DNA of 58,347 bases from an uncultured bacterium (GTDB lineage Bacteria > Hydrothermota > Tepidihabitantia > Tepidihabitantales > JBDRVQ01), in assembly GCA_964425275.1 (NCBI GenBank), contig CAYRLZ010000060.1, positions 1 to 58,347 of the forward strand. The letters run 5' to 3'. Under the pieces are notes generated by a model. The model searched no databases. It worked only from the letters and a program-made list of their open reading frames with translations, and was not told where the DNA came from. The position numbers were made by a program, and so were the translations under genes. Positions 2,746 through 56,121 of this stretch are shown here, one piece after another (position 1 is the stretch's first letter; every line of letters starts with the position of its first letter).

Positions 2746-2760
2746 ACTTGTGTAAGGCTA

Positions 2761-3282: not shown

Positions 3283-3314
3283 TAAAAAAACGCCCCACCA
3301 AAAAGATGGTGCGT
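3283..3314 (-). terminator. Rho-independent terminator of the Kelch-repeat gene
   Basis: The minus strand reads ACGCACCATCTTTTTGGTGGGGCGT followed by T7. It lies 17 nt after the stop at 3331. Confidence 0.6.
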
Positions 3315-3330
3315 CTCCTTTTCAGTCAGG

Positions 3331-4908: not shown

Positions 4909-4971
4909 AATTCCTCCTTTAGGATTTGTCCCTAACCAAAAGTCCTTCTTTTTTCTCTTCACCACTTTCTA

Positions 4972-4999
4972 AGCATAGCAGAAATTAGAAAAAAGTCAA
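4972..4999 (-). promoter_or_regulatory. sigma70-type promoter for the Kelch gene (about 60-nt leader with SD)
   Basis: Minus strand: TTGACT, 16 nt, TATGCT. Confidence 0.5.
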
Positions 5000-5048
5000 C
5001 GGTTAAAAAAATTCGGGAAGGCTAATTGGCGGTGGTGTGTTGGCAGTC

Positions 5049-5077
5049 TTGACTTTTGGGAAATAAGAGGGTATAAT
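5049..5077 (+). promoter_or_regulatory. sigma70-type promoter, 9 nt upstream of ATG 5087
   Basis: TTGACT (5049-5054), 17 nt, TATAAT (5072-5077). Confidence 0.6.
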
Positions 5078-5086
5078 ATTAAATAG

Positions 5087-6415
5087 ATGAAAGGAAGGCA
5101 AACAGCCACTTATGGAGGATTGGCGGTCAATAGATTAATCTCAATCTCTTGGTGGCGGGCATTCATAATCGGGCAGTTTTTGGGTATGGTGTCGGGATTT
5201 CCAATGTATAATCTCTATTATGGTAATCTCCATTCCCACACATCTTATTCTGATGGTCGGGGCACCCCCCGTCAGGCCTTTGCCTATGCCCGAGATACCG
5301 CCCGGATTCATATCTTGGCAGTAACCGACCACGGTGAGATGCTTTCCTCCGCCGAATGGGAAGATATTAAGAAACAAGCCGATTCCGCCACGAAGCCTGG
5401 TCAATTTTTAGGGCTGGCCGGGTTTGAATGGACAAGTCGGGATGGACATATCAATATCTTTAATACCTCCGATTACACCTCAGCGCATCAAAACCCAACC
5501 GTTGGTTCAATTTATGAGTGGCTGGCAAATAGGAATAATGCAATAGGCCAATTCAACCATCCGGGCGGTCCTTATCTCTTCAATAACTTCCGGCACAGTT
5601 CTATTGGCGATATTTCTATGACTCTTTTTGAAATTCAGAACCGCCACCAAGCCGAGGTTTATTATGTTGCCTTGGATAGTGGCTGGCGGGTTGGGATTTC
5701 AGCAAATCAGGATAATCACTTTCCGGACTGGGGCAAAGGGCATCAACTGACCGGTATCTGGGCCGAGAGTTTAACGAAGAGTTCAATCATTTCGGCGATT
5801 CAAAATAGACGCACCTTTGGAACTCTGGACAGGGATTTTCAACTCTGGTTCAAGGCAAATGACCAATGGATGGGTTCAACCATCCCTAATGGTGAGGTTC
5901 AATTTGAGGTCTTTGCCTTTGACCCGAGCCTTGCCGATTTCATCCGCCGAATTGATATTATAACGAACAATAATGTTGTATTGGATTCCCTTATTTTAGG
6001 TAATACAAATTATGCTCGGTGGCAGACCCGAACCTACACCAATTCGACGGCGAGGAAATATTTCTTTGTCCGGGTAATTGAGAACGATAGTGATTATATC
6101 CTCTCTTCGCCGATATGGACAAAGGGCGGTGGTATCTTAGAAGATGGCGAATATAAAATTTTCCCCAACCCATTTATTTCATCCATTACCTTTAACTTCA
6201 ATTCCATTCACCAGAGAAGTTTAGACGAGATAAAAATCTATTCAGTGAGTGGAAAGGAGATTAAATCCTTCTTACCAAAGTTACCAGTTCGTTGGGCGGG
6301 TGAGGATAAAGCCGGGAAAAAGGTTCCCGCCGGTGTATATTTTGTGGTTTTTAGGATAGGCAATAGCCAGTGGTGTGAAAAGATTATTCGGTTGAATAAA
6401 CCAATAGTAAAATAG
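5087..6415 (+). CDS. PHP-domain metallophosphoesterase-like protein with T9SS CTD
   Basis: YYGNLHSHTSYSDG and AVTDHGE motifs (PHP fold). C-terminal FPNPFISSITF...AGVYFVVF CTD. Confidence 0.75.
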   Translation: MKGRQTATYGGLAVNRLISISWWRAFIIGQFLGMVSGFPMYNLYYGNLHSHTSYSDGRGTPRQAFAYARDTARIHILAVTDHGEMLSSAEWEDIKKQADSATKPGQFLGLAGFEWTSRDGHINIFNTSDYTSAHQNPTVGSIYEWLANRNNAIGQFNHPGGPYLFNNFRHSSIGDISMTLFEIQNRHQAEVYYVALDSGWRVGISANQDNHFPDWGKGHQLTGIWAESLTKSSIISAIQNRRTFGTLDRDFQLWFKANDQWMGSTIPNGEVQFEVFAFDPSLADFIRRIDIITNNNVVLDSLILGNTNYARWQTRTYTNSTARKYFFVRVIENDSDYILSSPIWTKGGGILEDGEYKIFPNPFISSITFNFNSIHQRSLDEIKIYSVSGKEIKSFLPKLPVRWAGEDKAGKKVPAGVYFVVFRIGNSQWCEKIIRLNKPIVK

Positions 6416-6533
6416 TTAGGAGAGATTTTAATTGCTTTCATCTTCCTCACTAATTTGTCAGGAGTAAGAGTCTTTTTATTCCTTTTTGGGTTAAACCGCA
6501 GGGCATTTGCTTCTTTAGGTAAAGTCGATAGCA

Positions 6534-7010
6534 ATGGCGAAATACTGTTTTCGGCCGGGATGCCAGTTTAATTTTATCCAGGGAGAAAAAATGGGCGCTT
6601 GTTACCAATCGGTTTGGATTGCTGGTTCTTTACTTTTAAGATTTTTTCAGTATATATTATTTATGCTATTACTTACTCCCTTTTTCGTCTTTTTCTCGGA
6701 TACGATGGTGGTTAAAAAGGTAGATACGGTTTGTTATAATGAGATTAAGGATAAGTGGATTGCGGAAGATAAGTTCTGGCACTTCGGGATGAGCGTCGCC
6801 TTAGTTGGCTCGTCCTATCATTTATTTAAGTGCCGGCTCAATGAAGAAAAAAATCGGTCAACTATTTTCTCTCTTGGTGGGACATTCTCACTCGGGATTA
6901 TGAAAGAGTTCTGGGATAGAAGCCGACCCAAGGGGCACTTCAGTTATCGGGATATTGTTGTCAACCTATTAGGAATTGGTGTTGGCTATTTGATTTTTAT
7001 CTATGATTGA
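6534..7010 (+). CDS. Small membrane protein of unknown function
   Basis: ORF with hydrophobic segments and a DKFWHF...KEFWD pattern. The start is uncertain. It overlaps the trmI start by 8 nt. Confidence 0.45.
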   Translation: MAKYCFRPGCQFNFIQGEKMGACYQSVWIAGSLLLRFFQYILFMLLLTPFFVFFSDTMVVKKVDTVCYNEIKDKWIAEDKFWHFGMSVALVGSSYHLFKCRLNEEKNRSTIFSLGGTFSLGIMKEFWDRSRPKGHFSYRDIVVNLLGIGVGYLIFIYD

Positions 7011-25390: not shown

Positions 25391-26344
25391 ATGGGGAGAG
25401 ACCCAAAGTTGTTGAAGTTTTTGGACCTAATTTTAGATGGGGGATTTTCGGATATCCGACCGGTCTTTGACCCAAAAACCGAAAAACTGGTCCGTTATCC
25501 GGAGATTGAGCAGGCCTTAGAAAAGAATGCGGCTTTTGTCTCCCGACTCATTGAAGACCTAATTCGGCTCGGCTATTTAAAACGGTCATTCCTTTCTAAG
25601 ATGGTAATCTGTCCGGTCTGCAATTCCCCAGATTTGAGGTATCAAACATTCTGTCATAAGTGTGACTCCCCTTATATTGTAAAAATAAAGATGTTAGAAC
25701 ACCTCTTCTGTAATTATGTAGGAAAAGAGGAAGAGTTCCAGAATGGCCAGCGGCTAATCTGTCCCAAATGTCAAAAGGAACTCTTTATTATTGGTGATGA
25801 TTACAATAGCCCGGGATATAATTATCGGTGTTGTGAGTGTGGGGCAATCAGTCCAACCCCAAAAGAGAAATGGTTCTGTCCCAAGTGCGAAAATTTAATT
25901 GAGCGAGAAGAATTGAAAGATGTTATCCTGTTTTCCTATAAGGTAAACCGCCAGGAGATAGAAAGGCTCCGCAGGGAACGATTGCCGCGGGAAAGGATTA
26001 TAAATATCTTAAAGAAAGATGGCTATGAAGTTGAGGAGAATACGAGGCAAGTCGGTCGCTCCGGCGCCGAACATGAGATAGATATCCTGGCAACCAAATA
26101 TTCTGGGTCAACAACTCATCGGTTAGTGATTGGGTTTTCGATAAATGAGACCGAGATTGATTCCGAAGATGTGATAAAACTTTATGCCAAGGGTTATGAT
26201 GTAAATGCCCAGGATGTAATCTTGGTGGCAATTCCGAAACTATCCCCGGATGCCGAGAATTTTGCCCGACACTATCGGATAAAGGTATTTGAAGAGAAGG
26301 ACTTGGAAAGGTTGGAAGAGGAATTTGCTAGCGCCACCCAATAA
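25391..26344 (+). CDS. wHTH-like / multi-zinc-ribbon / PD-(D/E)xK-like nuclease-fold protein
   Basis: CxxC pairs: CPVC..CHKC, CPKC..CCEC, CPKC. C-terminal GRSGAEHEIDILA...VIGFS block resembles Mrr-type restriction-endonuclease folds. Confidence 0.6.
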   Translation: MGRDPKLLKFLDLILDGGFSDIRPVFDPKTEKLVRYPEIEQALEKNAAFVSRLIEDLIRLGYLKRSFLSKMVICPVCNSPDLRYQTFCHKCDSPYIVKIKMLEHLFCNYVGKEEEFQNGQRLICPKCQKELFIIGDDYNSPGYNYRCCECGAISPTPKEKWFCPKCENLIEREELKDVILFSYKVNRQEIERLRRERLPRERIINILKKDGYEVEENTRQVGRSGAEHEIDILATKYSGSTTHRLVIGFSINETEIDSEDVIKLYAKGYDVNAQDVILVAIPKLSPDAENFARHYRIKVFEEKDLERLEEEFASATQ

Positions 26345-29403: not shown

Positions 29404-29636
29404 CTATAATATACGATGCCTGGAGTTTCCCCAAAAATTAGAGGTAAATTTAAGTAAGTCTTTGGTATTTCGAAAGATAAGAAAATCATTCTCTTGTTTT
29501 TAGAGGGAAGCTCCTTCCCCAAAATTTATGCCAAAACCGTATTTCCGTCCCTTTTTGTATTAAAATTTAGTGAAACACTTTGAGCGGATTTTTACTCTAT
29601 ATTTAGATATGAGAAAAAGGCTAATTTTATTAAGTA

Positions 29637-29808
29637 TTGTTAAATCAATAACTTATATTTTTTGGCAATTTATATCGGGAGGTAAAAATGAAAGGATTAA
29701 ACTGACACCTAAGGCGTAAAGCGTAGAGCGTTAAACGTATAGCGTATTTTCTAATTCGCACCGCAGGGGATTTTTCTTTTTGGAAAGGGGGGAGTGCTAC
29801 AGGGGGTG
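29637..29808 (+). other. A2 leader/head
   Basis: TTGTTAAATCAATAACTTATATTTTTTGG (29637-29665). Five GCGTA-like heptads (29713-29746). GGGGATTTTTCTTTTTGGAAAGGGGGGAGTGCTACAGGGGGT (29766-29808) is homologous to the A1 head. Confidence 0.55.
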
Positions 29809-30024
29809 CTATTCGGGATGGTATTAAATGCCCTATTTTCTACCCTATTCTCTTGCCTATTCGGAATTCTATTCGGTAGCCTATTCTCTTGCCTATTGGT
29901 AATTCTATTCTTTATCCTATTGAGCGTTCTATTCCCTTTCCTATTAGGAGTTCTATTCTCGGTCCTATTGGGGATGCTATTGTGAGTTCTATTCTCTTTC
30001 CTATTCTATGTTCTATTCTTGGAG
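29809..30024 (+). repeat. Array A2: 18 phased 12-nt units with core CTATT
   Basis: CTATT (once GTATT) occurs at 29809 + 12n for n = 0..17. Collinear with A1. Confidence 0.9.
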
Positions 30025-37003: not shown

Positions 37004-37087
37004 GCCGAGGTGGCGGAATTGGCAGACGCGCTAGGCTCAGGACTTAGTGGGTTTCCACCCGTAGGGGTTCAAATCCCCTCCTCGGCA
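37004..37087 (+). tRNA. tRNA-Leu (anticodon CAG), type II with a long variable arm; CCA not encoded
   Basis: Hand-folded cloverleaf. Acceptor GCCGAGG/CCTCGGC. Anticodon stem CTAGG/CTTAG with loop CTCAGGA. 15-nt variable arm. T arm AGGGG-TTCAAAT-CCCCT. Confidence 0.9.
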
Positions 37088-39122: not shown

Positions 39123-40385
39123 TTATTCTCTAACCCGTTGGATATTGGCACCGAGGGAATTTAATTTTTCTTCCAGGTTTTCATAACCGCGGTCTAAATG
39201 ATAGATCCGAGAGATGACTGTCTCCCCTTTTGCCGCAAGACCGGCAATGACCAAACAGGCACTGGCCCTTAAATCAGAAGCCATAACCGGTGCCCCGGAC
39301 AATTTTGCCACGCCATCAATTATTGCGGTATTGTCGGTTATGGTAATCTTTGCTCCGAACCGCTGCAGTTCAACCGCGTGCATCAGGCGGTCCTCAAATA
39401 TCGTCTCGGTTATCACACTCCGCCCTTGGGCCGTAGTTAAAAGCGCCATAACCTGGGCCTGCATATCGGTCGGGAAACCGGGATAAGGGGCAGTAGTAAT
39501 GGTCGTCGGTTTAAGTTCCTGGGATACGGCCACCCTGATTTTATCTTTATCTTCTTCTACCTTGACACCGCATTCTCTTAATTTCACCAGGACCGTGGTT
39601 AAGTGCTCCGGGAGGCAATTTTCAATCTCAATCTCTCCCTTGGTTATTGCTGCGGCACAGGCAAAGGTTCCGGCTTCAATCCGGTCGGGAATTGGCTGAT
39701 ATTCCACACCTTCCAATCTTTTACTGCCAGTGACTTCTATCCTGAGTGTCCCGGCACCACTTATCTTTGCCCCCATCTTATTTAAGAAATTTGCCAGGTC
39801 AACAATCTCCGGCTCACAGGCGGCACCATAGATTACCGTCTTGCCACAGGCCAAGGTTGCCGCCATTAGACAATTGGCGGTAGCACCGACCGAAGTCCCC
39901 TTGGCTCCTTCTAAGCATAGTTCCGCGCCCATTAACTGACGGGTCTCACTAATCACATAACCACCTTCTACCTTAATATCGGCACCTAAGGCTTGTAGCC
40001 CCTTTAAATGCAAATCTACTGGACGGGGACCAATGGCACAGCCACCAGGTAAAGAGACCTTTGCCCTTTTATACTTTGCTAAAAGTGGTCCTAAAACAAA
40101 AAAACTGGCCCGCATCTGGCGCACGATTTCATAACCAGCGCAGAGGTTATCTATCTTAGAGGCATCAATGATTAGGTCTTTATTTTCTCTCCTAATTTTT
40201 ACCCCGAGGGAGGTGAGGAGATTAATCATTGTTTTCACATCAACCAGATTGGGAACATTGCGCAGGCGGACCGGTGAATCGGCAAGGAGTGATGCCGCCA
40301 TTAATGGCAAAATAGAATTCTTGGCGGTAGAGACTCGGACCTTTCCCTTTAACCGGGTTTCTCCTTTAATAACAAACTTATCCAT
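39123..40385 (-). CDS. murA: UDP-N-acetylglucosamine 1-carboxyvinyltransferase
   Basis: MDKFVIKGETRLKGKVRVSTAKNS at the N-terminus, the PGGCAIG active-site Cys loop, and 420 aa. Confidence 0.95.
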   Translation of the reverse strand: MDKFVIKGETRLKGKVRVSTAKNSILPLMAASLLADSPVRLRNVPNLVDVKTMINLLTSLGVKIRRENKDLIIDASKIDNLCAGYEIVRQMRASFFVLGPLLAKYKRAKVSLPGGCAIGPRPVDLHLKGLQALGADIKVEGGYVISETRQLMGAELCLEGAKGTSVGATANCLMAATLACGKTVIYGAACEPEIVDLANFLNKMGAKISGAGTLRIEVTGSKRLEGVEYQPIPDRIEAGTFACAAAITKGEIEIENCLPEHLTTVLVKLRECGVKVEEDKDKIRVAVSQELKPTTITTAPYPGFPTDMQAQVMALLTTAQGRSVITETIFEDRLMHAVELQRFGAKITITDNTAIIDGVAKLSGAPVMASDLRASACLVIAGLAAKGETVISRIYHLDRGYENLEEKLNSLGANIQRVRE

Positions 40386-40497: not shown

Positions 40498-40643
40498 TGG
40501 ATCGCCCAATCACCAAGCAAAGACCTTTAATGCCTCGTAATGCCTCGCGGAAATCACCACCAGAAAGCCCCTGCTTTCTTTAGAGGTTTAAGGTATAAAA
40601 TCATATTTTATGCCCCTGTGCCGGTTTTTATCACAAAAACCTG

Positions 40644-40835
40644 ATTTTCAATTAGACTTGGAATTAGAAAGAGAATTAGAGAGAGAATTACTAACCCAAT
40701 TAGTTAAAGAATTAGTCTGACAATTAGACACTTAATTACCCTTTCGGTTTGGCAGAGGATTAGTTAGAGAATTAGACAGTAAATTAGGCATTCAATTAGG
40801 CTGGGGATTACGTAAAGAATTAGATAATAAATTAG
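40644..40835 (-). repeat. Array A3: 16 phased 12-nt units with core CTAATT (AATTAG on the plus strand)
   Basis: ATTAG/ATTAC occurs on the plus strand at 40651 + 12n. One unit lacks the core (CAAACCGAAAGG). Confidence 0.9.
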
Positions 40836-40911
40836 ACCCAAAAGGCAACCCAGAGGGCTACCCCCTATCTTTCTTAAAAAATCAAATAAGTTATGTTAAA
40901 TCAAAGACTTA
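40836..40911 (-). other. A3 head: conserved block plus AAGATAGGGGGT, AGCCCTCTGGGT and TGCCTTTTGGGT
   Basis: About 90% identical by hand alignment to 50376-50450. Confidence 0.6.
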
Positions 40912-41005
40912 GGAGTAAAAATCGGACCTTGAAAACTATAACTATTGTTATAGAACTTTTGTTCGGGTCGTAATTAATATGTTTCCCTTGTGGTATGTGG
41001 ATATC

Positions 41006-41034
41006 TTGACAAGGGGAAAAATTTCCTCTATTAT
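41006..41034 (+). promoter_or_regulatory. sigma70-type promoter 6 nt upstream of ATG 41041
   Basis: TTGACA, 17 nt, TATTAT. Confidence 0.6.
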
Positions 41035-41040
41035 ATTTTT

Positions 41041-41544
41041 ATGAAAATCCCCAAACTTATTTATCTTTTTTTCTTTGCCCTGGTATTTGTCTCGGCGCAG
41101 AAGATTGAGACAAAGAGAGCAAAAAATTTCACCCTACCTAATATTGAGAAACAAAGGGTTACCCTTGACTCCTGCCTAAAGAAAGGTCCGGTCTTCATCA
41201 GTTTCTGGGCACTTTGGTGCAAACTCTGTATTGACGAACTGGATGCCTTTAAGGCCGTCTATGAGGAATTTGAGACCTTAGGACTTCAGGTCTTGGCGAT
41301 TTCCGAAGATGGTCCGCAAGCGACCGGAAAGATAAAGCCTTTTATCACTAATAGAAAGTGGCGCTATAATGTCCTCTTAGACCCAACGAATAAGGTGAAA
41401 AACTTATATGCGGTTAAGACAATGCCGACCAGTTTTTTGATTGATAAAAGTGGCCATATTGTCTATCAGCATACCGGATACAAAAAAGGCGATGAGAACA
41501 AAATAAGAGAAAAAATAAAGGCAATGTTTGAAAAGACTGAATGA
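41041..41544 (+). CDS. Secreted TlpA/AhpC-like thioredoxin-fold thiol:disulfide oxidoreductase
   Basis: Start at ATG 41041 (signal peptide MKIPKLIYLFFFALVFVSA). WALWCKLC redox motif. Confidence 0.8.
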   Translation: MKIPKLIYLFFFALVFVSAQKIETKRAKNFTLPNIEKQRVTLDSCLKKGPVFISFWALWCKLCIDELDAFKAVYEEFETLGLQVLAISEDGPQATGKIKPFITNRKWRYNVLLDPTNKVKNLYAVKTMPTSFLIDKSGHIVYQHTGYKKGDENKIREKIKAMFEKTE

Positions 41545-46391: not shown

Positions 46392-47588
46392 ATGCGACGG
46401 ATAAAACTTGGTAAGCGATTTATCATTATCTACTTTGTGTTTGGTTCCTGTCTTTTGGCAATTTTCTGGTTTTTCTTCTCCGCCCAGCTGCTAAAAAGAT
46501 TAGCGGAGGAGACTGAGGTCCGCTCCCGAATTTTTGCCAAGTATATGTCCCGAATCACAGAGGCGATGGAGGCCAGTTCCACGGAATTGGATATAATCTT
46601 TGAAGAGGTGATTAAGAAGATTGACTTTCCCTTAATGCTCACCGATGACCAGGGCAATATTGTGAGTTACCGGAATTTGGGCAAAAATCTCTCGCTCAAG
46701 GATTTACAGAGGATAAAAGAACGATTGGGGCGAAGGCAAAAGCCAATCCCCCTTACCTTTGTTAGCGAAGAAGGCGAGCAGTTTTTGGGTGAGATATATT
46801 ATGGGCAATCAAAGACCGCCCAGTTTGTTTCACTTTTTCCTTATCTCCAGATTTTCTTTCTCGTCGTCTTTCTACTAATTGGCGGGTGGGCAATCGTCGT
46901 TTATAAAAGACGGGAAGAAGAGAAGTTGTGGACATTTTTAGCCAAGGAGACCGCGCACCAATTGGCGACCCCCCTCTCTTCTTTTTCCGGCTGGCTGGTA
47001 AATCTCCAGTCCACTAATCCGCAAATTGTCAAGGAGATGGAGGCGGATATTGAACGAATGAGCCGGGTATTAGAAAGATTCTCCCGCATCGGACAGACAC
47101 CTAAATTATCCCCCTGTTCAATCAAAGAGGTGATTGAAGAGACCTATCATTTTATCCAACGAAGAACACCCCAGAATATCAATATGGTTCTCAATATTAA
47201 GGAGGATGCCTCACTTCTCCTGGATGAAGTCTTATTATCCTGGAGTTTAGAGAATCTCTTAAAAAATAGTATTGATGCCATCGGCCAAAAACCCGGGGCG
47301 ATTATCTTAAACGCCCAAAAGGAGCCGGGCGGCCGATATTATAAAATTTCTATAACCGATACCGGTGAAGGAATATCCCACAAGAAAAAGAAGGAGATAT
47401 TTTCCCCAGGGATAACAACTAAGAAATATGGCTGGGGTGTTGGTTTGCCCCTGGCGAAAAGAATTGTTGAGGAATACCATAAAGGAAAATTGGTTTTGGT
47501 TGAATCAAAAAAGGGGAAGACAATTTTTTCTATCCTTTTACCCTTAGGAGGTATTGAACGGAAAAATTATGCGGGTCCTCTGGATTGA
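46392..47588 (+). CDS. Membrane sensor histidine kinase (PorY-like by context)
   Basis: Two TM segments flank an approximately 110-aa loop. H box ETAHQLATPL, N box LKNSIDA, G boxes DTGEG and GWGVGL. Confidence 0.85.
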   Translation: MRRIKLGKRFIIIYFVFGSCLLAIFWFFFSAQLLKRLAEETEVRSRIFAKYMSRITEAMEASSTELDIIFEEVIKKIDFPLMLTDDQGNIVSYRNLGKNLSLKDLQRIKERLGRRQKPIPLTFVSEEGEQFLGEIYYGQSKTAQFVSLFPYLQIFFLVVFLLIGGWAIVVYKRREEEKLWTFLAKETAHQLATPLSSFSGWLVNLQSTNPQIVKEMEADIERMSRVLERFSRIGQTPKLSPCSIKEVIEETYHFIQRRTPQNINMVLNIKEDASLLLDEVLLSWSLENLLKNSIDAIGQKPGAIILNAQKEPGGRYYKISITDTGEGISHKKKKEIFSPGITTKKYGWGVGLPLAKRIVEEYHKGKLVLVESKKGKTIFSILLPLGGIERKNYAGPLD

Positions 47589-49080
47589 TGATGAGATTGA
47601 ATTACTGAACCCCTATATCTATCTCTTAAAGGAGAGGGGCTACGAGGTGGATACGGCGGCTAATGGTCCGGATGGCTTGCGGCTCGTTACGACCAAAGGC
47701 TATGATTTGATATTCGTTGACCAGATGATGCCCGGGGTAGAAGGCCTGGCGGTGGTGGAGGCAATTAAAGGCTTTGACCCTTCCGCGGTGATTGTGATGG
47801 TGACAAAATTGGGTGAAGAGGAACTGATGGAGGAGGCTTATTCTAAATTAGTGGACGATTTCATCGTCAAGCCTTTCTCTCCTCATCAGATAATCTCGGT
47901 GGTGAAGCGATTATTAGAGAAGAGAAAGATTATTACTGAAAAGTTGACCCGAGACTATCTTGCGTTCCTGCGGGAGGAGAGGAATTTTAATTCCTTTACC
48001 GAATGGCGTGATTATTACCTCCGATTGATCCGTTGGCGATTTCTCATTGAAAGATTTGGCGAAGAGAGTTTAAAAGAGACCCTAGGTGATATTCAGCGAC
48101 AGGCGAATGATGACTTTGCTTGCTTTGTGGAGGAGATTTATCCCTCCTGGTTGGAGGGAAAAGAAGAGCCACCGCTTTTATCCCATAAGGTCTTTGGTAA
48201 TCTTTTGGCACCTTATCTTCGAGAAAAACCGTTATACTTCTTTATCTTTGATTCAATGCGGCTTGACCAGTGGTATCTTTTAGTTCCCCTCCTAAAAGAA
48301 TACTTCAATATCCGACAATTTTACTATCTATCAATCTTACCTTCGGCGACGCCCTATTCCCGCAATGCCTTGCTCTCCGGACTTTTGCCCTTAGAAATTC
48401 ATACCCGATATCCTAATCTCTGGGTTTTTGATGAGATGGGACAGAACCGTTACGAGAAAGAACTCCTCGCCAAACTTTTGGCCCAAGAGAAAATTGGTGG
48501 CCCTTGGTTTTATTTGAAGGCGACGAAGAGTGAAGATATTGAAGAACAGAGGGGAATGCTCTTACGGAAGGATGTCCGATTTGCCTGTATCGTAGTAAAT
48601 TTTCTTGACTTTCTTCTCCATGCGGCCAGACCGGCTAAGCCGCTGGAGGATATTTTGGAAAACGAAAGTTCTTTCTTACAACTGACCCGAACCTGGTTTG
48701 CCAATTCACCCTTCTTTGAATTTATCAAGGAATTGGCGAATCAGGACTGCCGGGTGATAATTACTACTGACCATGGTTTCATCAAGGTCAAAAGACCAAC
48801 CATCATCTTTGGTGATATGGAAATATCATCCAATCTCCGATACAAACATGGCTCGGCTTTAAGGACAGAGGGGCGAAATGCCCTGCTCGTTTTTCCGGAG
48901 AGGCTTGGATTACCCAAGGCCAGCCCAGATGAGAAGATGGCGATTGCCAAATCCGATTTTTATTTCATCTACCCGACAAAACCGACTCAATACGAAAGGA
49001 CCTATAAATTTACCTACCAGCACGGTGGTATATCTCTGGAGGAGATGATTCTGCCTTTGGGGATCTTAGAGAAGCGGTGA
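47569..49080 (+). CDS. porX: Response regulator with CheY receiver and PglZ/alkaline-phosphatase-superfamily domain (PorX-like)
   Basis: Start at ATG 47569 (MRVLWIDDE). Receiver Asp in IFVDQMMPG. C-terminal PglZ-like blocks (FFIFDSMRLDQW, ITTDHGF). Confidence 0.75.
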   Translation: MRVLWIDDEIELLNPYIYLLKERGYEVDTAANGPDGLRLVTTKGYDLIFVDQMMPGVEGLAVVEAIKGFDPSAVIVMVTKLGEEELMEEAYSKLVDDFIVKPFSPHQIISVVKRLLEKRKIITEKLTRDYLAFLREERNFNSFTEWRDYYLRLIRWRFLIERFGEESLKETLGDIQRQANDDFACFVEEIYPSWLEGKEEPPLLSHKVFGNLLAPYLREKPLYFFIFDSMRLDQWYLLVPLLKEYFNIRQFYYLSILPSATPYSRNALLSGLLPLEIHTRYPNLWVFDEMGQNRYEKELLAKLLAQEKIGGPWFYLKATKSEDIEEQRGMLLRKDVRFACIVVNFLDFLLHAARPAKPLEDILENESSFLQLTRTWFANSPFFEFIKELANQDCRVIITTDHGFIKVKRPTIIFGDMEISSNLRYKHGSALRTEGRNALLVFPERLGLPKASPDEKMAIAKSDFYFIYPTKPTQYERTYKFTYQHGGISLEEMILPLGILEKR

Positions 49081-50129
49081 TGCGTTTTATTGAATTGCCA
49101 TTGATGTCTTTGGAGATGAAGCCCGGGCTGGTTCGTTTTACCACACCGCTGATTATCGAACCGAAGGGTCTAAAATCCCTGGCGGAAGATTTCTTTAATC
49201 TATTTAAGGAGAAGATTTATCCCGAGGCAAAAAAACTTGGCGCGCCCAAGAAGGAGGCAAATGCCGATACCTTCCCTATCTATTTAACCAATCGGGAAAT
49301 TGCCTACCTAAATTTTGTCTATGATATCGACCACACCCGATTATCCTTTGAGACCCCTAAAAAAGAACTCACCGAGCCTTTATTCCGGCTTTTGCGGGAA
49401 CAGCGAATAATCAAACCGGACTTAGAGTATATTCGGGAGAAGGTCTTCGGTGGACTACGGGAGGTGGTGGCCGCTTTACTCTGGCAGGTCGGGGCGATAA
49501 AGGTTAGTCTCGGTGATATCAGACCATTCTTTAAGGTTGACGAGCGGAAAAACCAGAGCCCAATTTATATTGATGTGAAGTGCTTGCCTAACTTTCCTCT
49601 GGTCTTTGATTTTTTAATCAGCCAGTCGGCCTTAATCCTCCAACACTACGATTTTGACCTCATCTGTGGGATTGAAGCCGGCAGTATCGCCTTTGCCACT
49701 GCCCTGGCTCAGAAGTTTAACCGACCAAGTTTCTTTGCCCGTCGGGAGCGACGTTACCCTGAGGCATCACTCTTGGAAGGGATAAAAGACCACGAGATTT
49801 TTAAGAAAAAGGTTTTGCTCTTTGATGATACGATTGTTAAGGGCTGGACAAAGCGGCGCGTGGTTGAAGCCCTGCGGCAAAAGGGGGCAATCTGTGAATA
49901 TACCTTTGTCATCTTTGACCGTCTGCAAGGAGGGAAGGAAGACCTTTTGGCCTTAGACTGTCAGTTACTCTCTTTAACCGACCGTGATGCCCTCCTTTCC
50001 AAAAGGATTCCGAAGGCCATCACTTTACTTACAGAAATGGAATATAAGGAAATTCTGGAATACTTCGCTGACCCAAAGAAGTGGCATAATAAAAAAGGTT
50101 TCCCTTATTTTGAGTTGAAACCAAAGTAA
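49077..50129 (+). CDS. Type I phosphoribosyltransferase (orotate-PRTase-like) with an unassigned N-terminal extension of about 125 aa
   Basis: PRPP motif VLLFDDTIVKGWT. PyrE-like SPIYIDVKCL block. The start overlaps the porX-like stop (ATGA-type overlap: ATG 49077-49079, TGA 49078-49080). Confidence 0.7.
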   Translation: MMRFIELPLMSLEMKPGLVRFTTPLIIEPKGLKSLAEDFFNLFKEKIYPEAKKLGAPKKEANADTFPIYLTNREIAYLNFVYDIDHTRLSFETPKKELTEPLFRLLREQRIIKPDLEYIREKVFGGLREVVAALLWQVGAIKVSLGDIRPFFKVDERKNQSPIYIDVKCLPNFPLVFDFLISQSALILQHYDFDLICGIEAGSIAFATALAQKFNRPSFFARRERRYPEASLLEGIKDHEIFKKKVLLFDDTIVKGWTKRRVVEALRQKGAICEYTFVIFDRLQGGKEDLLALDCQLLSLTDRDALLSKRIPKAITLLTEMEYKEILEYFADPKKWHNKKGFPYFELKPK

Positions 50130-50159: not shown

Positions 50160-50375
50160 CTAATCAATTAGGTAGAGAATTAGACTCGGAATTAGACTAT
50201 CAATTAGACCGAGAATTAGACAGAGGATTAGCCACAGGAGTACTTCTTCCATTAGTTAGAGAATTAGGATGGCGATTAGACACTTAATTAGCCTTTCGGT
50301 TAGAAAAAGAATTAGTTAGAGAATTAGCCGCTCAATTAGTATCTGGATTAGGCGGAGAATTACACCGAGAATTAA
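50160..50375 (-). repeat. Array A4: 18 phased 12-nt units with core CTAATT
   Basis: ATTAG or a variant occurs on the plus strand at 50167 + 12n. It contains the same core-less unit CTAACCGAAAGG followed by CTAATTAAGTGT as A3. Confidence 0.9.
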
Positions 50376-50450
50376 ACCCGGAAGGCGACCCAGAGGGCAA
50401 CCCCCTATCTTTTTAAAAAATCCCATAAGTTCTGTTAAATCAAAGGCTTA
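50376..50450 (-). other. A4 head: conserved block plus AAGATAGGGGGT, TGCCCTCTGGGT and CGCCTTCCGGGT
   Basis: See the A3 head. The minus-strand reading is TAAGCCTTTGATTTAACAGAACTTATGGGATTTTTTAAAAAGATAGGGGGTTGCCCTCTGGGTCGCCTTCCGGGT. Confidence 0.6.
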
Positions 50451-50471
50451 TACCAAAAAAGGGTATTTGGA

Positions 50472-50507
50472 AACCGGAAGTATATTTCTGGAAGTATACT
50501 TCTGGTT
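50472..50507 (-). terminator. Long hairpin between the lnt-C25 gene and the A4 head; possible terminator
   Basis: AACCGGAAGTATA / TATACTTCTGGTT arms (one G-T pair) with a 10-nt loop. On the minus strand a T6 run follows only after 12 nt, so this is not canonical. Confidence 0.3.
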
Positions 50508-50685: not shown

Positions 50686-53600
50686 TTATTTTATCAAAAT
50701 CACCTTTCGGGAGATAGAGAAATCCTTGGTCTGTAAAGAGAAGAAATAGATACCGGGTGGTAGGCTTCTTTTTCTCTGGTCTTTGCCATCCCATGTTGCC
50801 GTATAAATGCCCGGCTCTTTCACACCCCTGGTTATTGGCCGAACCAAACGACCGGTAATATCATAGATGTTTAATGATAGCCACTGTCGGTTGGGGATTT
50901 GGTACCGGATATTTGTCCTTTGCCGAAATGGATTGGAGTAAGTCAAACTGAATAACGGGCTTTCATAGGGGAGATAATTAGGTGCGGTCACGGTTATGAT
51001 GATTTCGTCCCTTTCTTCTCCGTTGATTGGGAATTTTATCTGCCCATCTTTATCGGTAGTGCCGTAATAGTAGAAATCCGGTGAGAGGGGTTTTGTTAGA
51101 CAGACCAATGCCTTTGGGATTGGTTGGCCGGTGATACTATCCTTTACCTCAACGACAAAAATCTGGGAACCCAAAAATTTATGAGAAACAACCATCGGTT
51201 TTGGGACCTTGGTCCAGATATTCAGTTCCGGGTCACCTAAAAGGCTCCACTCCCGATAGAAATATTCGTTAGCGTCTCCGGAATAGGGAGGAGAGGCGAT
51301 GCTATCCTTGCCTCTTAGAAATGCCTTCCCCAAAATTAAATTATCATTAACCATAACCGTCCGGAGGAAGGTTCGGACGAACCGACCGCGCCAGCGGCCA
51401 AAGCCGCCACCGAGCTGGGTTCCGAAAAAGGCCACGGCACCCTTTAAGTCTTCTCCTCCCCCTTTCACCCGCAGCCACCGCTCACCAACCGTGTTTTCAC
51501 TCTTAAAGATTGTATGGCAGGAACCAGAGATAATTATTGGCAATTTATAACCATTCTGTAACCTTTCGTCCTCCGGCTCAACCGTGAAGGGATAGGCCCA
51601 GTTGCCTGAGGCATGCCCCCGATAGAGAACGAGACTGCTTCCTTCATTTAAGGAGGCGATTATATCATCGGCATCGTCATATCCTTGATGACCAAAGAGT
51701 GTGTCGTTAAAGATTGTGTCAACCTTTGAATAGCGGAGACGGAGGATTGAATCATCATAAGGGAACTCCTCGCTATAAATTGGGTTAGCCGGTCGGCCGC
51801 CAAAGTCCCACATAAATATCAGCGTCGCCCTTTTATACCAGAGGGTATCTTCTCTTTTTGGGAAGCGCTCATAGGTTAAAATCTTTTGCACCATCGTCTG
51901 ACATTCGTCAACATTCCGACAGGGAAGTCGTCCGACCGGTATCTCCGCCCGGTAATCGCCTTCCATATCACCATAAAAATTGTCGCCCAATAAGAGTTGG
52001 TAAGAGTAATAAAGGGAGTCCCCGGGTGGGATATAATTTTTATCCCCAACCAGAAGGAGATACTCCGGACCGATAGATTTTATAATCCTCTTTATTGAAT
52101 CCGGCGAGGCACGATAAGGAACCTTTACAATCTCGGCCTTTACCCCTTTCTTGGTCTTCCACTCTTTTAATGGCTGGAGGGCATCAAAAAACTTCTCATT
52201 AGTGATTATAAGATAACGGCAATCAGTAGCGCCATTGACGATTACCGCACTAAATACAAAAATTAAAAGTCCAACCGACTTCCTCCGATGCAAGCTACCG
52301 CCGGCCATTCTCAGAATGAGAATGATTATTGAAAGATAGATAAACCAATCACCAAATCGCAAATAGAAAGTAGAGGGTAATGGTTTCGGAAGATTTCCGT
52401 AAAGAACCATTTCGGTAAAGAGGGGGGTCTTTTTAATCACCTCACCATAAGGAGAGACGATTAAAGAAATTCCATTATTCGCCGAGCGCAGAAGTGGTTT
52501 CCCCAATTCCACACTCCTCATTACCGCTAACTCGCAATGCTGATAAGGTCCGGGTGTCTTACCAAACCAACCGTCATTGGTAATATTTACCAGAAGGTCG
52601 GCTCCCCTTAAAACAAATTCCCGGGTTAAATCCGGAAAAATTGACTCAAAACAGATAAGGCAACTGGCTTTAGCCAAAGGGGTGGAAAAGACGGTGAATT
52701 CCTTTCCTGGGGTAAAATTTCCCATATCCGCGGTAGCAAAGGGCTTAAAAATTGGGAACTTGTCAATGTAAGGAATCCTTTCGGAGAAAGGGACCGGATG
52801 AATCTTCTTATAAATTCCGGTAATGCCATTTTCCGGGTCAATCAAAACCGCGCCGTTAAAGTAAGCGTTATCCTCATAGATTGGTGTTCCGATTAAGATA
52901 TAGACCCCGTAAGTCTGGCTAATTCTTAAAAACTCATCTTTTAGCCAAATCTCTTTGGTCAAATCAAATAAGGAGGCGGTCTCCGGATAGATTAAAAGGA
53001 AAGGCTTTTCTTTTATCGCCTCTTGAGTCAATTGGAGTAAAGAGCGGATATTCTCTTCTATCGTGCTTCTATCCCCCTTCTCATTCGGGCTGACATTGGG
53101 CTGAATGATTGCCACCTTAAAATTATTCTCTACCCCTTTCATTCGCAAAAGACCATAGGAAAGAGGAATGAGAAAGGTGAGGATTAAAGTTATCGCCCAT
53201 CTTTTCTTTCTGGTAAAGAGTAATTGATAGATTATAAGATTTAAAAAAACGACAAAGGCGGAAAGACCATAGACACCGGTGATGGAGGCGAATTGGATTA
53301 AGGGCAAATAAGGGGTCTGGGTATAACCCAAAAGACCCCAGGGAAAGCCAATCTCTGACTTTGTGCGGATAAACTCAAGGAGTGCCCAGAGCAAAGGGGC
53401 GATAAATAATCCGAACTTCTTCACCCCCAAACCAAAGACCAATCCGTAGAGACCAAAATAACCAAAGAGGACGAAAACTCCAAGGTAGAGAAGAAATTTC
53501 GTCTTCTCCAAAACCGGCACGACCAAAAAATAAAGCCACCAGAGATGAAAAAGGGCAAAGAGGAAAAAGAAGAGGAAGGAATAAAAGAGTGCCTTTTTGA

Positions 53601-53733
53601 GCGATGACTTTGTAATCAAATAAAAGAGCGGGACTAAGGAGAAGTAGGCGAGGAAGCGGAAGGGAAAAGGGGAAAAGGCAAGGTTTAAGGCGAAGGGCGA
53701 GAGAAAGAAAAGAACTTTCCCAAACTTACCCAT
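50686..53733 (-). CDS. lnt: In-frame fusion of apolipoprotein N-acyltransferase (Lnt), C25 gingipain-like cysteine peptidase and T9SS CTD
   Basis: Residues 1-475 hold 8 TM segments and a CN-hydrolase domain (IYPETA, CLICFES, NITNDGWF). From Met476 (nt 52308) there is a signal-peptide-like segment, then C25 blocks (YLLLVGD..IP, VGRLP, YRGHASGNW, IIISGSCHT). The C-terminal CTD contains NIYDITGRLV...PGIYFFSL. Confidence 0.8.
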   Translation of the reverse strand: MGKFGKVLFFLSPFALNLAFSPFPFRFLAYFSLVPLFYLITKSSLKKALFYSFLFFFLFALFHLWWLYFLVVPVLEKTKFLLYLGVFVLFGYFGLYGLVFGLGVKKFGLFIAPLLWALLEFIRTKSEIGFPWGLLGYTQTPYLPLIQFASITGVYGLSAFVVFLNLIIYQLLFTRKKRWAITLILTFLIPLSYGLLRMKGVENNFKVAIIQPNVSPNEKGDRSTIEENIRSLLQLTQEAIKEKPFLLIYPETASLFDLTKEIWLKDEFLRISQTYGVYILIGTPIYEDNAYFNGAVLIDPENGITGIYKKIHPVPFSERIPYIDKFPIFKPFATADMGNFTPGKEFTVFSTPLAKASCLICFESIFPDLTREFVLRGADLLVNITNDGWFGKTPGPYQHCELAVMRSVELGKPLLRSANNGISLIVSPYGEVIKKTPLFTEMVLYGNLPKPLPSTFYLRFGDWFIYLSIIILILRMAGGSLHRRKSVGLLIFVFSAVIVNGATDCRYLIITNEKFFDALQPLKEWKTKKGVKAEIVKVPYRASPDSIKRIIKSIGPEYLLLVGDKNYIPPGDSLYYSYQLLLGDNFYGDMEGDYRAEIPVGRLPCRNVDECQTMVQKILTYERFPKREDTLWYKRATLIFMWDFGGRPANPIYSEEFPYDDSILRLRYSKVDTIFNDTLFGHQGYDDADDIIASLNEGSSLVLYRGHASGNWAYPFTVEPEDERLQNGYKLPIIISGSCHTIFKSENTVGERWLRVKGGGEDLKGAVAFFGTQLGGGFGRWRGRFVRTFLRTVMVNDNLILGKAFLRGKDSIASPPYSGDANEYFYREWSLLGDPELNIWTKVPKPMVVSHKFLGSQIFVVEVKDSITGQPIPKALVCLTKPLSPDFYYYGTTDKDGQIKFPINGEERDEIIITVTAPNYLPYESPLFSLTYSNPFRQRTNIRYQIPNRQWLSLNIYDITGRLVRPITRGVKEPGIYTATWDGKDQRKRSLPPGIYFFSLQTKDFSISRKVILIK

Positions 53734-53781: not shown

Positions 53782-53943
53782 TTAAAAATTTTTGCCTTTT
53801 TCACCATAATATTCCTTTATCTTTTGGGTCAAGCCGTTTGCTAATTCTTTATAAGGAGTGGCTTGTTGAGTCTTAAAATATCTAATCAGAAGTTTTAAGG
53901 TAGAGCCATCTCGGAACACTGCTTTTATGCTCCTTCTTCCCAT
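53782..53943 (-). CDS. Possible 53-codon ORF overlapping the 3' end of the candidate endonuclease gene
   Basis: Not in the track (under 60 aa). Sequence: MGRRSIKAVFRDGSTLKLLIRYFKTQQATPYKELANGLTQKIKEYYGEKGKNF. No SD seen. Confidence 0.2.
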   Translation of the reverse strand: MGRRSIKAVFRDGSTLKLLIRYFKTQQATPYKELANGLTQKIKEYYGEKGKNF

Positions 53944-54665
53944 AACTTCTCGTTATCCAAAATTTTCCTCCAAGTTCTTAATTCTAAATCTTTCACTTCT
54001 TCAAAACTTTTTTCCGGTGTCGCGTCAAAATTAATTTCTGGTAAGCCTGGTAAATTTTCTTTCCACTTTTTAAACCAAGAGAGGATATTATTCCATATCT
54101 CAGGATGCTTTAAATATTTAAATAATTCTTCGCCATAAAAAAGATGGAGTTTAACGCCGTAGAATTTTTCGAGTCTTTTAAGTTGCTGAAGATAATAATT
54201 TTCATTTTTAGAAAGGCCGGGGTCTATAAAATACATAAAACCTACTAATTGTGAGCCGTGTCTTTTATGTAAAATTTCAATCTTCGTTTCAAAATTAGAT
54301 ATCTGCCCTTGCTTTTTAGTAGAATCATGGTCGTCTCTTACCTTTTGCTCAACGAAATAATATATGCGTCCATCCGTAAAATACTGGTCTAATGCTAATG
54401 TTTCGCCACTTTCGTTTACTATACTTTTAGATAAAATTCTAAAGCCAAGGGATTTCAGGATTTCTTCTATTATTTCTTCAAGGGCGTCTCCCATTCGTAT
54501 TTCATGAGATTGAAGAAGGTGTTGTAAAATTTTTGCTCCTGGTTTTGTTGGTCTAAATAAACCGATAAAACGTTCTGGGTTCTCCGCAATTCGCCGCAAA
54601 AGTTCTTTTTTCTCACCTTCAAATATATGTTTGTTCAAAATCGAAGAAAATGCCTTGTAATTCAT
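53925..54665 (-). CDS. Candidate type II restriction endonuclease (PD-(D/E)xK-like)
   Basis: Contains D93...E106-x-K108 (LALDQYF...YYFVEQKVRDD). It is the last gene of a methyltransferase operon. Confidence 0.45.
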   Translation of the reverse strand: MNYKAFSSILNKHIFEGEKKELLRRIAENPERFIGLFRPTKPGAKILQHLLQSHEIRMGDALEEIIEEILKSLGFRILSKSIVNESGETLALDQYFTDGRIYYFVEQKVRDDHDSTKKQGQISNFETKIEILHKRHGSQLVGFMYFIDPGLSKNENYYLQQLKRLEKFYGVKLHLFYGEELFKYLKHPEIWNNILSWFKKWKENLPGLPEINFDATPEKSFEEVKDLELRTWRKILDNEKLWEEGA

Positions 54666-54694
54666 TCGTTCCTCCTGACTTCACATAGTCTTAA

Positions 54695-55168
54695 TCACTT
54701 CTTATATTTTTCAATGTAATACTCCTCTGAGTAAGATGGCAAATCCTCCTTAGAAATAATTTCAAACTCAATCTTATTCTCATGAAGAAATTTAGTTATG
54801 CTTAGTAAAGGGAGATCTAAAAAATAAATTTTATTTACGTCGCTATACTCAAATTTTACATTCTTACCTCTCCATTCCGCTTCCCAGAAGGGCATGTCAT
54901 AAAAATCTTGGCTATTTTCTTCCACATCGTACCGATAAGGATAAATTTTGTTTTTCTCCATTAAGCGTCTTGCCGATAATTCAATTATTACATCACCGTA
55001 GAAAGAAAGATAATCGCTCAAAATATCCGAAAAGCTAATAGTATCTTCGTCATAGCCACTTATTCGCCTTCCTTTTGGAGTAAAAACTTTTTCTTCCAGT
55101 ATAGCAATAAGGTTACTTAGAGATGTTGCGTGATATAAATACTTTGGGAAATTGCCTCCTTTTTTCAT
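54695..55168 (-). CDS. Unknown 157-aa protein inserted between the methyltransferase and the candidate endonuclease
   Basis: The start overlaps the MTase stop (ATGA). N-terminal LYHATSLSNLIAILEE and central WEAEWR motifs. Confidence 0.6.
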   Translation of the reverse strand: MKKGGNFPKYLYHATSLSNLIAILEEKVFTPKGRRISGYDEDTISFSDILSDYLSFYGDVIIELSARRLMEKNKIYPYRYDVEENSQDFYDMPFWEAEWRGKNVKFEYSDVNKIYFLDLPLLSITKFLHENKIEFEIISKEDLPSYSEEYYIEKYKK

Positions 55169-56121
55169 TCAACCACCTCTAAGTTTAGATAATTGTTTAT
55201 GTATTTTTTACCTGTAAATGATAAGTCAAGTATCTTTAATGAACATTTAAACCTTTGTTCTATGCCTTTTACATACTTCGGATTGACTTCGATCATAACG
55301 AAATCCCTTTTTAATGCCTGTGCCACATATCCAGTTGTTCCTGTCCCCGCTACAGGGTCCAAAACCAAATCTCCTTCCTTGGTCGATACCAAAATCACTC
55401 TCCTAAGAAGTTCTATCGGTTTTTGTGTAGAGTGTAGCTTTTTCCCACTTTCATCTTTTAGTCTTTCATCACCCCAGCAGAGAGGTAAAACCCAAACATT
55501 TGCACCAACTTTTCCGATGCCAAACCTTTTGGCGTATTCTTTATTAAAAGTGTATCCCTTAACATGTTTATCCTTTACCGCCCAAATTAAGGTCTCGGTA
55601 GCATTTGTGAACCTCACACCTAACCAATTGGGCATTGGGTTGGTCTTTACCCAAATCACATCGTTGAGAATCCAATAGCCTAAATCTTGCATAATTTTCC
55701 CAATTCTAAAAATGCTGTGGTAAGTAGCAATAACCCAAATTGTAGCAGTTTTTTTCATTACTCTTTTTACCTCCGTGAGCAATTTTTTGATAAATTCATC
55801 GTATTCTTGAAAAGAGGAAAATTTATCCCATTCGTCATTTACCCCTTCAACAACAGTTTTTACCTTCCACCGTCTTAATTCTTTATTTGGTAACTGCAAA
55901 AAATAAGGCGGGTCAATAAAAACCATGTCAAAGACCTCGTCTTCTATTCTTGGGAGAACCTGGAAGGTGTCGCCTAAGATAACTTTATTTCTGATTTCGT
56001 CAATTTTATAAATAGCCTTCCGGTCATTATCCTTTACCAATATCCTCCTACCTTTTCTTTGGCGTCTTTCGTATTTAAACAGAATTTCCTGTTTGGTTTT
56101 AGATTTATCTTTTTCTCCCAT
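55165..56121 (-). CDS. Beta-class N6-adenine (or N4-cytosine) DNA methyltransferase, CcrM/M.HinfI-like
   Basis: FIDPPYF first, then IWVIATYHSIFRIG, NDVIWVKTNPMPN, FTNATETLIWA, HSTQKP and DPVAGTGTTG. This circularly permuted motif order is that of beta-class enzymes. Confidence 0.9.
   Translation of the reverse strand: MGEKDKSKTKQEILFKYERRQRKGRRILVKDNDRKAIYKIDEIRNKVILGDTFQVLPRIEDEVFDMVFIDPPYFLQLPNKELRRWKVKTVVEGVNDEWDKFSSFQEYDEFIKKLLTEVKRVMKKTATIWVIATYHSIFRIGKIMQDLGYWILNDVIWVKTNPMPNWLGVRFTNATETLIWAVKDKHVKGYTFNKEYAKRFGIGKVGANVWVLPLCWGDERLKDESGKKLHSTQKPIELLRRVILVSTKEGDLVLDPVAGTGTTGYVAQALKRDFVMIEVNPKYVKGIEQRFKCSLKILDLSFTGKKYINNYLNLEVVE

Follow-up and report, generated by a model that had tools for sequence, protein, structure and literature searches.

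In the 58,347-nt stretch of DNA analysed here (the window), the murA gene lies on the minus strand at 39123–40385 (Pfam EPSP_synthase, E = 3e-108) and a divergent gene with an AhpC/TSA-Redoxin domain annotation lies on the plus strand at 40990–41544. The initial annotation placed an array of CTAATT repeats, here called A3, between murA and this tlpA-like gene and oriented toward murA, and we found the same geometry. The promoter-like sequence TTGACA-17-TATTAT at 41006–41034 was also found again.

Read on the minus strand from 40835 to 40644, A3 consists of 16 units of 12 nt, in agreement base for base with the units listed previously. Each unit has a CTAATT core followed by a 6-nt spacer. The core is exact in 11 of the 16 units and 15 of them conform to NTAATY, the sole exception being unit 8 (CAAACCGAAAGG). 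Given the frequency of the hexamer on that strand, 11 in-register copies of CTAATT among 16 units have a probability of ∼4e-32. The lag-12 autocorrelation excess of A3 was 0.36, compared to a window background of 0.008 ± 0.043 (z = 8.3), and Tandem Repeats Finder returned rows of period 12 and period 48 at this location. The odd middle unit, which had been singled out for lacking the core, proved to be a conserved feature: CTAACCGAAAGG, or a near variant, is found at the same position in A4 (see below) and in most other CTAATT-type copies. The whole array was present at 100% identity in an independent Logan assembly (SRR5216256), and A3 is therefore not an assembly artefact.

The conserved element extends from ∼40963 (leader) to ∼40620 (tail hairpin). 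The interval first marked, 40644–40911, does contain the array but covers only part of this element. At the upstream edge of the leader is an operator-like palindrome, CTATAAC-AATA-GTTATAG (40936–40953, minus strand), which is kept in 5 of 7 CTAATT-type leaders. The promoter-like leader module itself, TAAGTCTTTGATTTAACATAACTTATTTGATTTTTTAAGAAAGAT followed by AGGGGGT (40860–40913, minus strand), was delimited by an nhmmer profile and a leader alignment; the profile, built from seven leaders, matched the A3 leader with E = 1.6e-13 and elsewhere matched family members only. Next comes a G-rich head of 31 nt, AGGGGGTAGCCCTCTGGGTTGCCTTTTGGGT (40836–40866, minus strand), which shares the 12-nt register of the array and is near-invariant among CTAATT-type copies. 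In the minus-strand reading the array (40644–40835) is directly preceded by ...AAAGATAGGGGGTAGCCCTCTGGGTTGCCTTTTGGGT. The element ends in a tail (40621–40643, minus strand) with the hairpin GGTTTTT-GTGAT-AAAAACC (40641–40623). As no U tract follows this hairpin, it is not a canonical terminator. This hairpin and a second one, AGAAAGC-AGGG-GCTTTCT, had both been noted earlier, as had the tandem repeat TAATGCCTCG x2 at 40528–40547, and all three are present. No open reading frame of at least 40 aa overlaps 40644–40911 besides the flanking genes, which bears out the earlier statement that the array lacks long reading frames.

We noted that one Logan contig (L002) starts at window position 40877, exactly 30 nt upstream of the first A3-specific head base, which distinguishes the A3 head (GGGTTGCC) from other CTAATT-type heads (GGGTCGCC). 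If the Logan assembler uses k = 31, as we presume, the contig end would be a de Bruijn branch point, and a further copy with the same leader and head would then be expected in that sample.

Four homologous elements in the window

The window contains exactly four period-12 arrays (A1 to A4). These align end to end: the upstream block and the G-rich head are common to all, the unit counts are close, and spacers at corresponding positions resemble each other. The head consensus of the four elements, AGGGGGT.....TC.GG.T.G..TT, is itself in 12-nt register. The arrays differ in their cores: A3 and A4 have CTAATT, A1 has (C/T/G)CTATT and A2 has CTATT.

A1 is of the CTATT type and occupies 2711–3210 on the minus strand, with the leader at 3158–3210, the head at 3122–3152 and 16 units at 2930–3121. 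Its array continues into a pyrimidine-rich tail (2750–2929, minus strand), which is homologous to the tail of a third, CCTTAC type described below, and the element ends at a strong bidirectional terminator (2711–2740). With the terminator of the upstream gene on its other side, A1 is thus bracketed by terminators, an arrangement that would fit an independent transcription unit.

A2 (29520–30023, plus strand) is also of the CTATT type and has a long leader, termed class b, followed by the head (29801–29831) and 16 units (29832–30023). Within the leader are a promoter-like block (∼29620–29665), the sequence GGGAGG-N5-ATG (29677–29690) and five GCGTARA heptads (29710–29746). The blastn matches of A2 to 14 metagenome copies cover 29520–30020. 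The five tandem heptads read GCGTAAA GCGTAGA GCGTTAA ACGTATA GCGTATT, are found at the same position in four metagenome copies (L254, L267, L273 and L276) and may constitute a separate protein-binding site.

A4 (50163–50505, minus strand) is a CTAATT-type paralogue of A3, with the leader at 50400–50451, the head at 50376–50406 and ∼18 units down to ∼50163. It also has a palindromic site (50476–50505), GGAAGTATACTTCT x2, the sequence of which differs from that of the A3 palindrome. The A3 (40936–40953) and A4 (50476–50505) palindromes are at the same position, ∼90 nt upstream of the head, and with their different sequences they look like operator sites of differing specificities.

Metagenome copies and graded conservation

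The columns that are invariant in all four window heads were used as a search signature, GATTTTN{8,28}AGGGGGTNNNNNTCNGGNTNGNNTT. This gave 33 metagenome matches and no match in viral contigs. In all 23 matches from the JGI samples Ga0209102 and Ga0129301 a period-12 array immediately follows the head. The remaining 10 matches, from other samples, have no array, which is consistent with the ∼14 matches that we estimated would arise by chance. Removal of duplicates leaves 25 unique copies, four of them in the window; 18 are of the CTATT type and 7 of the CTAATT type. The 21 copies beyond the window come from two JGI metagenomes with related WOR-3 species. At the DNA level it is the elements alone that match between the window and these copies (75–87% identity over 320–500 nt), and the flanks do not. 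The exception is L247, an orthologue of the A1 locus with 79% identity including the adjacent Kelch gene. From the matching of the elements alone, and from the identity of 79% at L247, the source organisms are related species and not the same strain. A1 and L247 are the only orthologous pair, and the site is occupied in both species.

A third variant has the same leader module, followed by units with a CCTTAC core that decay into a pyrimidine tract; at several loci it forms a second array. We located this type in L256 (∼4400–4900, minus strand), L270 (4900–5250, plus strand), L271 (1340–1650, plus strand), L275 (∼6300–6700, minus strand) and L252 (from ∼348). The CCTTAC-type array, with its long polypyrimidine tail, often comes immediately after an element of the CTATT type, and in window A1 a CTATT array seems to have been fused to a tail of this kind (2750–2929). 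An apparent swap of core types at one locus (L276 compared with L278) was withdrawn, as the two share only a 190-nt downstream module.

In searches of GTDB genomes and viral contigs with array patterns rather than the head (CTATT x4 at 12-nt spacing and CTAATT x3 + TAATT, respectively), the matches listed were unrelated tandem repeats from many phyla and giant viruses, with no WOR-3 genome and no head motif among them. The family is known so far only from one lineage of candidate division WOR-3.

All copies have a common layout of a promoter-like leader, the 31-nt G-rich head, ∼16–18 phased 12-nt units and a short tail, which in some copies is followed by a terminator. The elements are 0.32–0.5 kb long. 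Each unit consists of a core of 5–6 nt and a semi-conserved 6-nt spacer, and there are no indels within arrays. Between non-orthologous copies, conservation begins 100–190 nt upstream of the head and ends 20–35 nt past the array. One leader module, TAAGT..TTGATTT.ACA..ACTTA...GATTTTT, is found in all leader classes and with all three core types. To this the CTAATT-type leaders add a palindromic, operator-like site. In the CTATT type, class a and class b leaders have an extra insert of ∼150 nt with a conserved GGAGG-N5-ATG, and class b has the five GCGTARA heptads in addition.

The degree of conservation is graded along the element. In an alignment of 16 CTATT copies, pairwise identity averaged 0.98 in the head, 0.95 in the core, 0.68 in the spacers and 0.41 in the flank following the array, compared with 0.30 for random sequence. 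The spacers have a position-specific consensus, which holds across copies and core types alike. Spacers rich in pyrimidine (CTCTNN) tend to alternate with spacers rich in purine (GGNNAT), in 261 of 400 cases compared with 208 ± 10 expected, an indicative figure only because the copies are not independent. Judged from sequence comparison, the gradient from head to core, spacer and flank points to purifying selection or sustained gene conversion. The high identity of the head alone is no proof of selection, since the copies share descent and may also have undergone gene conversion.

A simple scan found no sigma-70-type promoter in the leaders of A1, A4 and A3, and the term 'promoter-like' is therefore used for the leaders on grounds of conservation and position only. 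About half of the copies have a divergent gene upstream, so that these copies cannot be 3′ UTRs.

Relation to murA, reading frames and RNA folding

The position of A3 relative to murA had implied a link between the two. If A3 were a cis-regulatory 5′ leader of murA, a transcript starting at ∼40875–40900 would read through the array and control murA. The array is indeed co-oriented with murA, it lies 259 nt upstream of the murA start and no canonical terminator separates them. Against this, at least 25 copies, A3 among them, are dispersed beside unrelated genes in all orientations; the genes downstream of the four window arrays, for example, are murA, rlmN, a phosphoribosyltransferase gene and an S8 peptidase gene. 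In addition, murA has a promoter-like site of its own downstream of the array, found by scanning (TTGACT-16-GAAAAT, 40418–40391). The murA homologs identify the source of the window as an uncultured bacterium of candidate division WOR-3. The comparison of orthologous murA upstream regions that the initial annotation had proposed showed no array at any of six loci with 75–60% identity (L003–L006, L279–L281). Upstream of murA these loci have secG, a nitroreductase gene or, abutting murA without a gap, a gene of the phosphoglycerate-mutase type, and none of the six has a tlpA-like gene beside murA. An identical murA/tlpA arrangement without an array was therefore not encountered literally, because the arrangement itself is not conserved. 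Neither a period-12 array nor the leader motif occurs anywhere in the ∼92 kb of other WOR-3 DNA that these loci comprise. With no conserved association to murA across the six loci, A3 does not belong to a class of murA 5′ leaders or riboswitches. A role as the murA leader is not supported and we consider it very improbable. For the question first raised at this locus the practical outcome is negative: A3 is not a murA regulatory element.

Genes for two BrxC/BrxD-family (BREX-like) ATPases come after murA-gcpE in GCA_039801985.1, the closest NCBI relative (L003, 3272–5877). This murA neighbourhood is not syntenic with the window.

The flanks of the four window copies consist of housekeeping or T9SS-cargo genes, and flanking proteins in the window carry T9SS sorting domains. 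Among all 25 copies, T9SS-cargo proteins are the sole recurrent neighbours (7 of 25, as a raw count). Neither the window nor the surroundings of the other copies contain a gene for a candidate partner.

The arrays could also be read as a gene family for peptides with a four-residue repeat, (P/S/A)-I-x-x or (L/V)-I-x-x in frame 0 or, for the CTATT type, a hydrophobic L-F-x-x peptide in frame 1. Frame 0 (xCT ATT) is free of stop codons in 17 of the 25 copies. For the CTATT type, frame 1 offers an ATG within the head and is mostly interrupted by just one stop (16 of 18 copies), which in L271, read by hand, is the TAA of unit 15 (CCTATAAAGAGC). Hand translation of two class a/b copies (window A2 and one of class a) placed the ATG of the leader in frame with the array. 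However, these same two copies have 2–4 in-frame stops between the leader ATG and the array. Where the frame is open, this is explained by the composition of the arrays, because sequence with 60–68% pyrimidine rarely forms stop codons. For the CTAATT type, frame 0 contains 12 in-frame stops compared with 11 expected, and frame 1 has a TAA in nearly every unit. The distribution of substitutions is the reverse of that in a coding repeat: the first codon of the core is CCT, TCT or GCT in 295 of 306 units, with T as the third base in 302 of 306 and a first base that varies freely. A search of the frame-0 translation against 5.8e9 proteins found no homolog. The arrays are non-coding, because the synonymous sites of the core are invariant while the first positions vary and because stops in the CTAATT type occur at the rate expected by chance. 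Together with the lack of a protein homolog, the codon pattern and the stops indicate that selection acts on nucleotides. Substitution at synonymous sites, an intact reading frame with a start codon and homologous proteins, as in a protein-coding tandem repeat, were all lacking, and a coding family is already largely refuted and very unlikely. Since frame 0 is free of stops in so many copies, annotation pipelines could nevertheless miscall the arrays as genes.

A genuine coding repeat of the same period looks different. Five period-12 arrays of AATAG in a Rickettsiaceae MAG (CBDBTV010000005.1; L089) are unrelated to the WOR-3 elements and encode GKIE repeats, in perfect copies inside reading frames of 420 aa. 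The region concerned (124–5427) has four tandem paralogous genes of ∼420 aa each with perfect GGTAAAATAGAA (G-K-I-E) repeats.

In the class a/b leaders, GGAGG-N5-ATG opens a mini-ORF of 3–5 codons (MRG* or MKGLN*) ∼110 nt upstream of the head. This was seen in the window at 29677–29690 and in L251, L256, L260, L262, L264, L265, L267, L270, L271, L273 and L276. It may represent a genuine mini-ORF, a site for ribosome loading or a vestige.

Folding of the A3 RNA was no better than that of shuffled controls (z = −0.37), and A2 folded worse than its shuffled controls in both the sense (z = +1.59) and the antisense direction (z = +1.51). For an alignment of 16 copies, the covariation term of the consensus fold was only −1.18, and it contained one 3-bp helix with two compensatory sequences. 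We also considered hairpins formed between neighbouring units, in which AUUCUC pairs with GGGAAU and alternate cores lie in the loops. For the CTATT type, offsets of +1 and −1 were equivalent; for the CTAATT type the complementarity is absent, so that such pairing is not family-wide. The arrays have a GC skew of −0.24 and the pyrimidine content given above, whereas the window is balanced. The array is best described as avoiding structure.

Possible roles of the family

The whole window gave only one Rfam 15 hit at the gathering threshold, a tRNA at 37004–37087. In permissive mode, the best matches in the A2 and A3 regions had E-values of 1.1 or worse and scores far below gathering level. There was no similarity to the element in plasmid and phage collections or in viral contigs. 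By these searches, by the protein search and the Pfam-annotated context, and by general knowledge, the element family is undescribed.

The reading that we prefer, tentatively and with somewhat less than even confidence, is that the elements give rise to self-transcribed, unstructured, pyrimidine-rich RNAs that act as a phased multivalent platform for a protein binding single strands. Each copy would be transcribed from its own leader as a stand-alone RNA that is pyrimidine-rich and deliberately unstructured. In its role as a phased multivalent sponge or scaffold, this RNA would be bound by a protein with affinity for single-stranded nucleic acid, which would nucleate on the invariant head and then occupy one core per 12 nt, giving ∼17 protomers per RNA, and the three cores would correspond to three specificities or to a single tolerant one. 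Candidate partners are Rho, which binds unstructured, pyrimidine-rich RNA with C in excess over G at ∼12 nt per subunit, and proteins of the cold-shock, S1 and KH types. We favour a stand-alone transcript because of the polarity and strand asymmetry of the elements, the bracketing terminators, the RBS-like site in some leaders and the avoidance of structure. The closest functional analogy to this mechanism is provided by sRNAs of the CsrB/RsmZ type. These are ∼350 nt long and titrate one RNA-binding protein, CsrA, through ∼18–22 copies of a short motif; the motif, GGA, is presented in hairpin loops at irregular spacing, and there are 1–5 such genes per genome. The elements share with them the many motif copies per RNA but differ in having no hairpins, a strict 12-nt phase, a nucleation-like head, dozens of copies and three cores. 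They do not belong to the CsrB/RsmZ class, as their cores are CTAATT, CTATT and CCTTAC, without excess structure. Counting against the RNA platform are the lack of a candidate partner gene near any copy and of a sigma-70-type promoter in the A1, A3 and A4 leaders, and the three cores mean that the model requires three binders or some other recognition mode. A simple sponge is further disfavoured by the spacers, which are constrained too and alternate between pyrimidine-rich and purine-rich; a sponge needs neither.

Alternatively, the array could act as double-stranded DNA, with a protein such as a winged-helix or ribbon-helix-helix dimer binding one core per 12 bp and forming a helical filament on ∼200 bp. 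The head and leader would then be a nucleation or operator site, and the role could be chromosome organization, a partition-like function or local transcriptional control. The strictly constant 12-bp phase of the direct repeats, without indels, would suit such an array, as would the failure to find RNA structure, the palindromic operator-like sites and the five 7-bp GCGTARA repeats of the class-b leader. There are also iteron precedents: the tubC centromere, bound by TubR, has 12-bp iteron arrays, and ParR or omega bind arrays of 6–11-bp iterons. The elements resemble tubC and parC in having short direct repeats at constant spacing (16–18 units of exactly 12 bp), and the period is identical to that of tubC. 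However, the tubC, parC/ParR and omega-heptad arrays have 4–20 repeats and lie beside partition genes on plasmids or phages, whereas the present family has ∼17 units at each of dozens of intergenic sites on the chromosome, and its elements are strongly strand-asymmetric and made polar by their leader and head. A partition centromere does not match the location of the copies, which have chromosomal housekeeping flanks and no plasmid, phage or viral-contig counterpart. The dispersal of the copies is unlike that of centromeres, no DNA-binding or partition genes are adjacent, a 12-bp period is out of phase with the 10.5-bp helix, and neither the GC skew nor the polar layout with terminators is needed by a double-stranded site. 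We regard a DNA-level role as possible but doubtful. A selfish or neutral dispersed repeat of the MITE, BOX or MIRU kind, without a host function and with its periodicity a relic of its origin, is in our view unlikely. It would account for a family that is multi-copy, intergenic, lineage-restricted and absent from the ∼92 kb of other WOR-3 genomes. It would also account for its mosaic nature, as seen in the combination of leader classes a, b, c and d with different arrays, in the joining of a CTATT array to a type-3 tail in A1 and in the 190-nt downstream module common to L276 and L278. The pneumococcal BOX, mycobacterial MIRU, REP/BIME and Correia elements likewise occur in many intergenic copies and are mosaic and lineage-specific, and some of them have internal tandem modules and promoter activity. 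Their internal repeats are 40–100 nt long, variable in number and usually structured, in contrast to the unstructured 12-nt units found here, with their roughly fixed number and position-specific spacers. The retention of ∼17 units and of these spacers between copies and core types is unlike slippage-prone minisatellites. Further points against a selfish repeat are that the A1 locus has kept its position between species with an identity (79%) about equal to that of the adjacent coding gene, and that the conservation gradient suggests purifying selection or sustained gene conversion. Terminal inverted repeats, which define MITEs, are absent; only weak AT-rich pairs occur, away from the element boundaries.

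The succession of a leader and of constant cores with variable hexamers, at multiple loci per genome, might also recall a guide-RNA array of the CRISPR or TIGR type. Like type III antitoxin RNAs (ToxI) and CRISPR or TIGR arrays, which are transcribed as tandem arrays behind a leader or promoter, the elements have their array behind a leader. Those systems have periods of at least 36 nt and lie beside a partner gene, and CRISPR and TIGR spacers are unique; both the period and the adjacency to a partner gene thus differ. A ToxI-like array would have repeats of ∼34–45 nt upstream of a gene for a ToxN-type endoribonuclease, but here the period is 12 nt and the downstream genes are of other kinds. 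In place of the ∼23–50-nt repeats and unique spacers of similar length in a CRISPR array, there is a 6-nt core and a 6-nt spacer, and from one copy or species to another these short 'spacers' show position-by-position conservation. The repeats lack a hairpin. The annotated window proteins near the arrays include none that is cas-like, and T9SS-tail proteins are the only recurrent neighbour family of the 25 copies. Given the conservation of the spacers, a guide-RNA array appears already effectively refuted, and we consider it extremely improbable.

A more far-reaching and distinctly speculative possibility, which we think has no great probability, is that the elements are 'molecular rulers'. 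The head would nucleate a cooperative, directional protein filament on the RNA (or DNA) that advances by one protomer per 12 nt over ∼17 steps, with three orthogonal core codes giving three assemblies. If so, bacterial ribonucleoprotein or chromatin-like particles of a new class would be encoded at dozens of loci in an uncultured phylum. If the elements are transcribed platforms, they would constitute a new architecture of regulatory or scaffold RNA that is strictly phased, unstructured and multi-copy with interchangeable core 'codes', and the arrays would provide a sequence handle for fishing out the partner protein. We know of no cultured members of the WOR-3 phylum and of almost no RNA biology described for it. 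Were they DNA iterons or selfish repeats, they would still be an unusually regular repeat family and a useful lineage marker.

Several other genes in the window deserve mention. A protein of 1015 aa (50686–53733, minus strand) is an unusual fusion in which LNT_N and CN_hydrolase domains (apolipoprotein N-acyltransferase) are joined to a peptidase domain of the C25 (gingipain) type and to a sorting tail of the T9SS. At 53925–56121 on the minus strand, an N6/N4 DNA methylase gene (55165–56121) and two subsequent ORFs of 157 and 246 aa, which lack a Pfam match, may form a restriction-modification or defence cassette. The protein encoded at 25391–26344 (plus strand) joins a TackOD1 domain (Thaumarchaeal output domain 1) to a restriction endonuclease domain of the Mrr type and may be a defence or signalling effector. 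At 46392–49080 (plus strand), a gene for a histidine-kinase-like ATPase protein precedes one in which a response-regulator receiver is fused to a PglZ domain. The gene after the receiver-PglZ fusion encodes a phosphoribosyltransferase-domain protein (49077–50129), and it ends 18 nt from A4.
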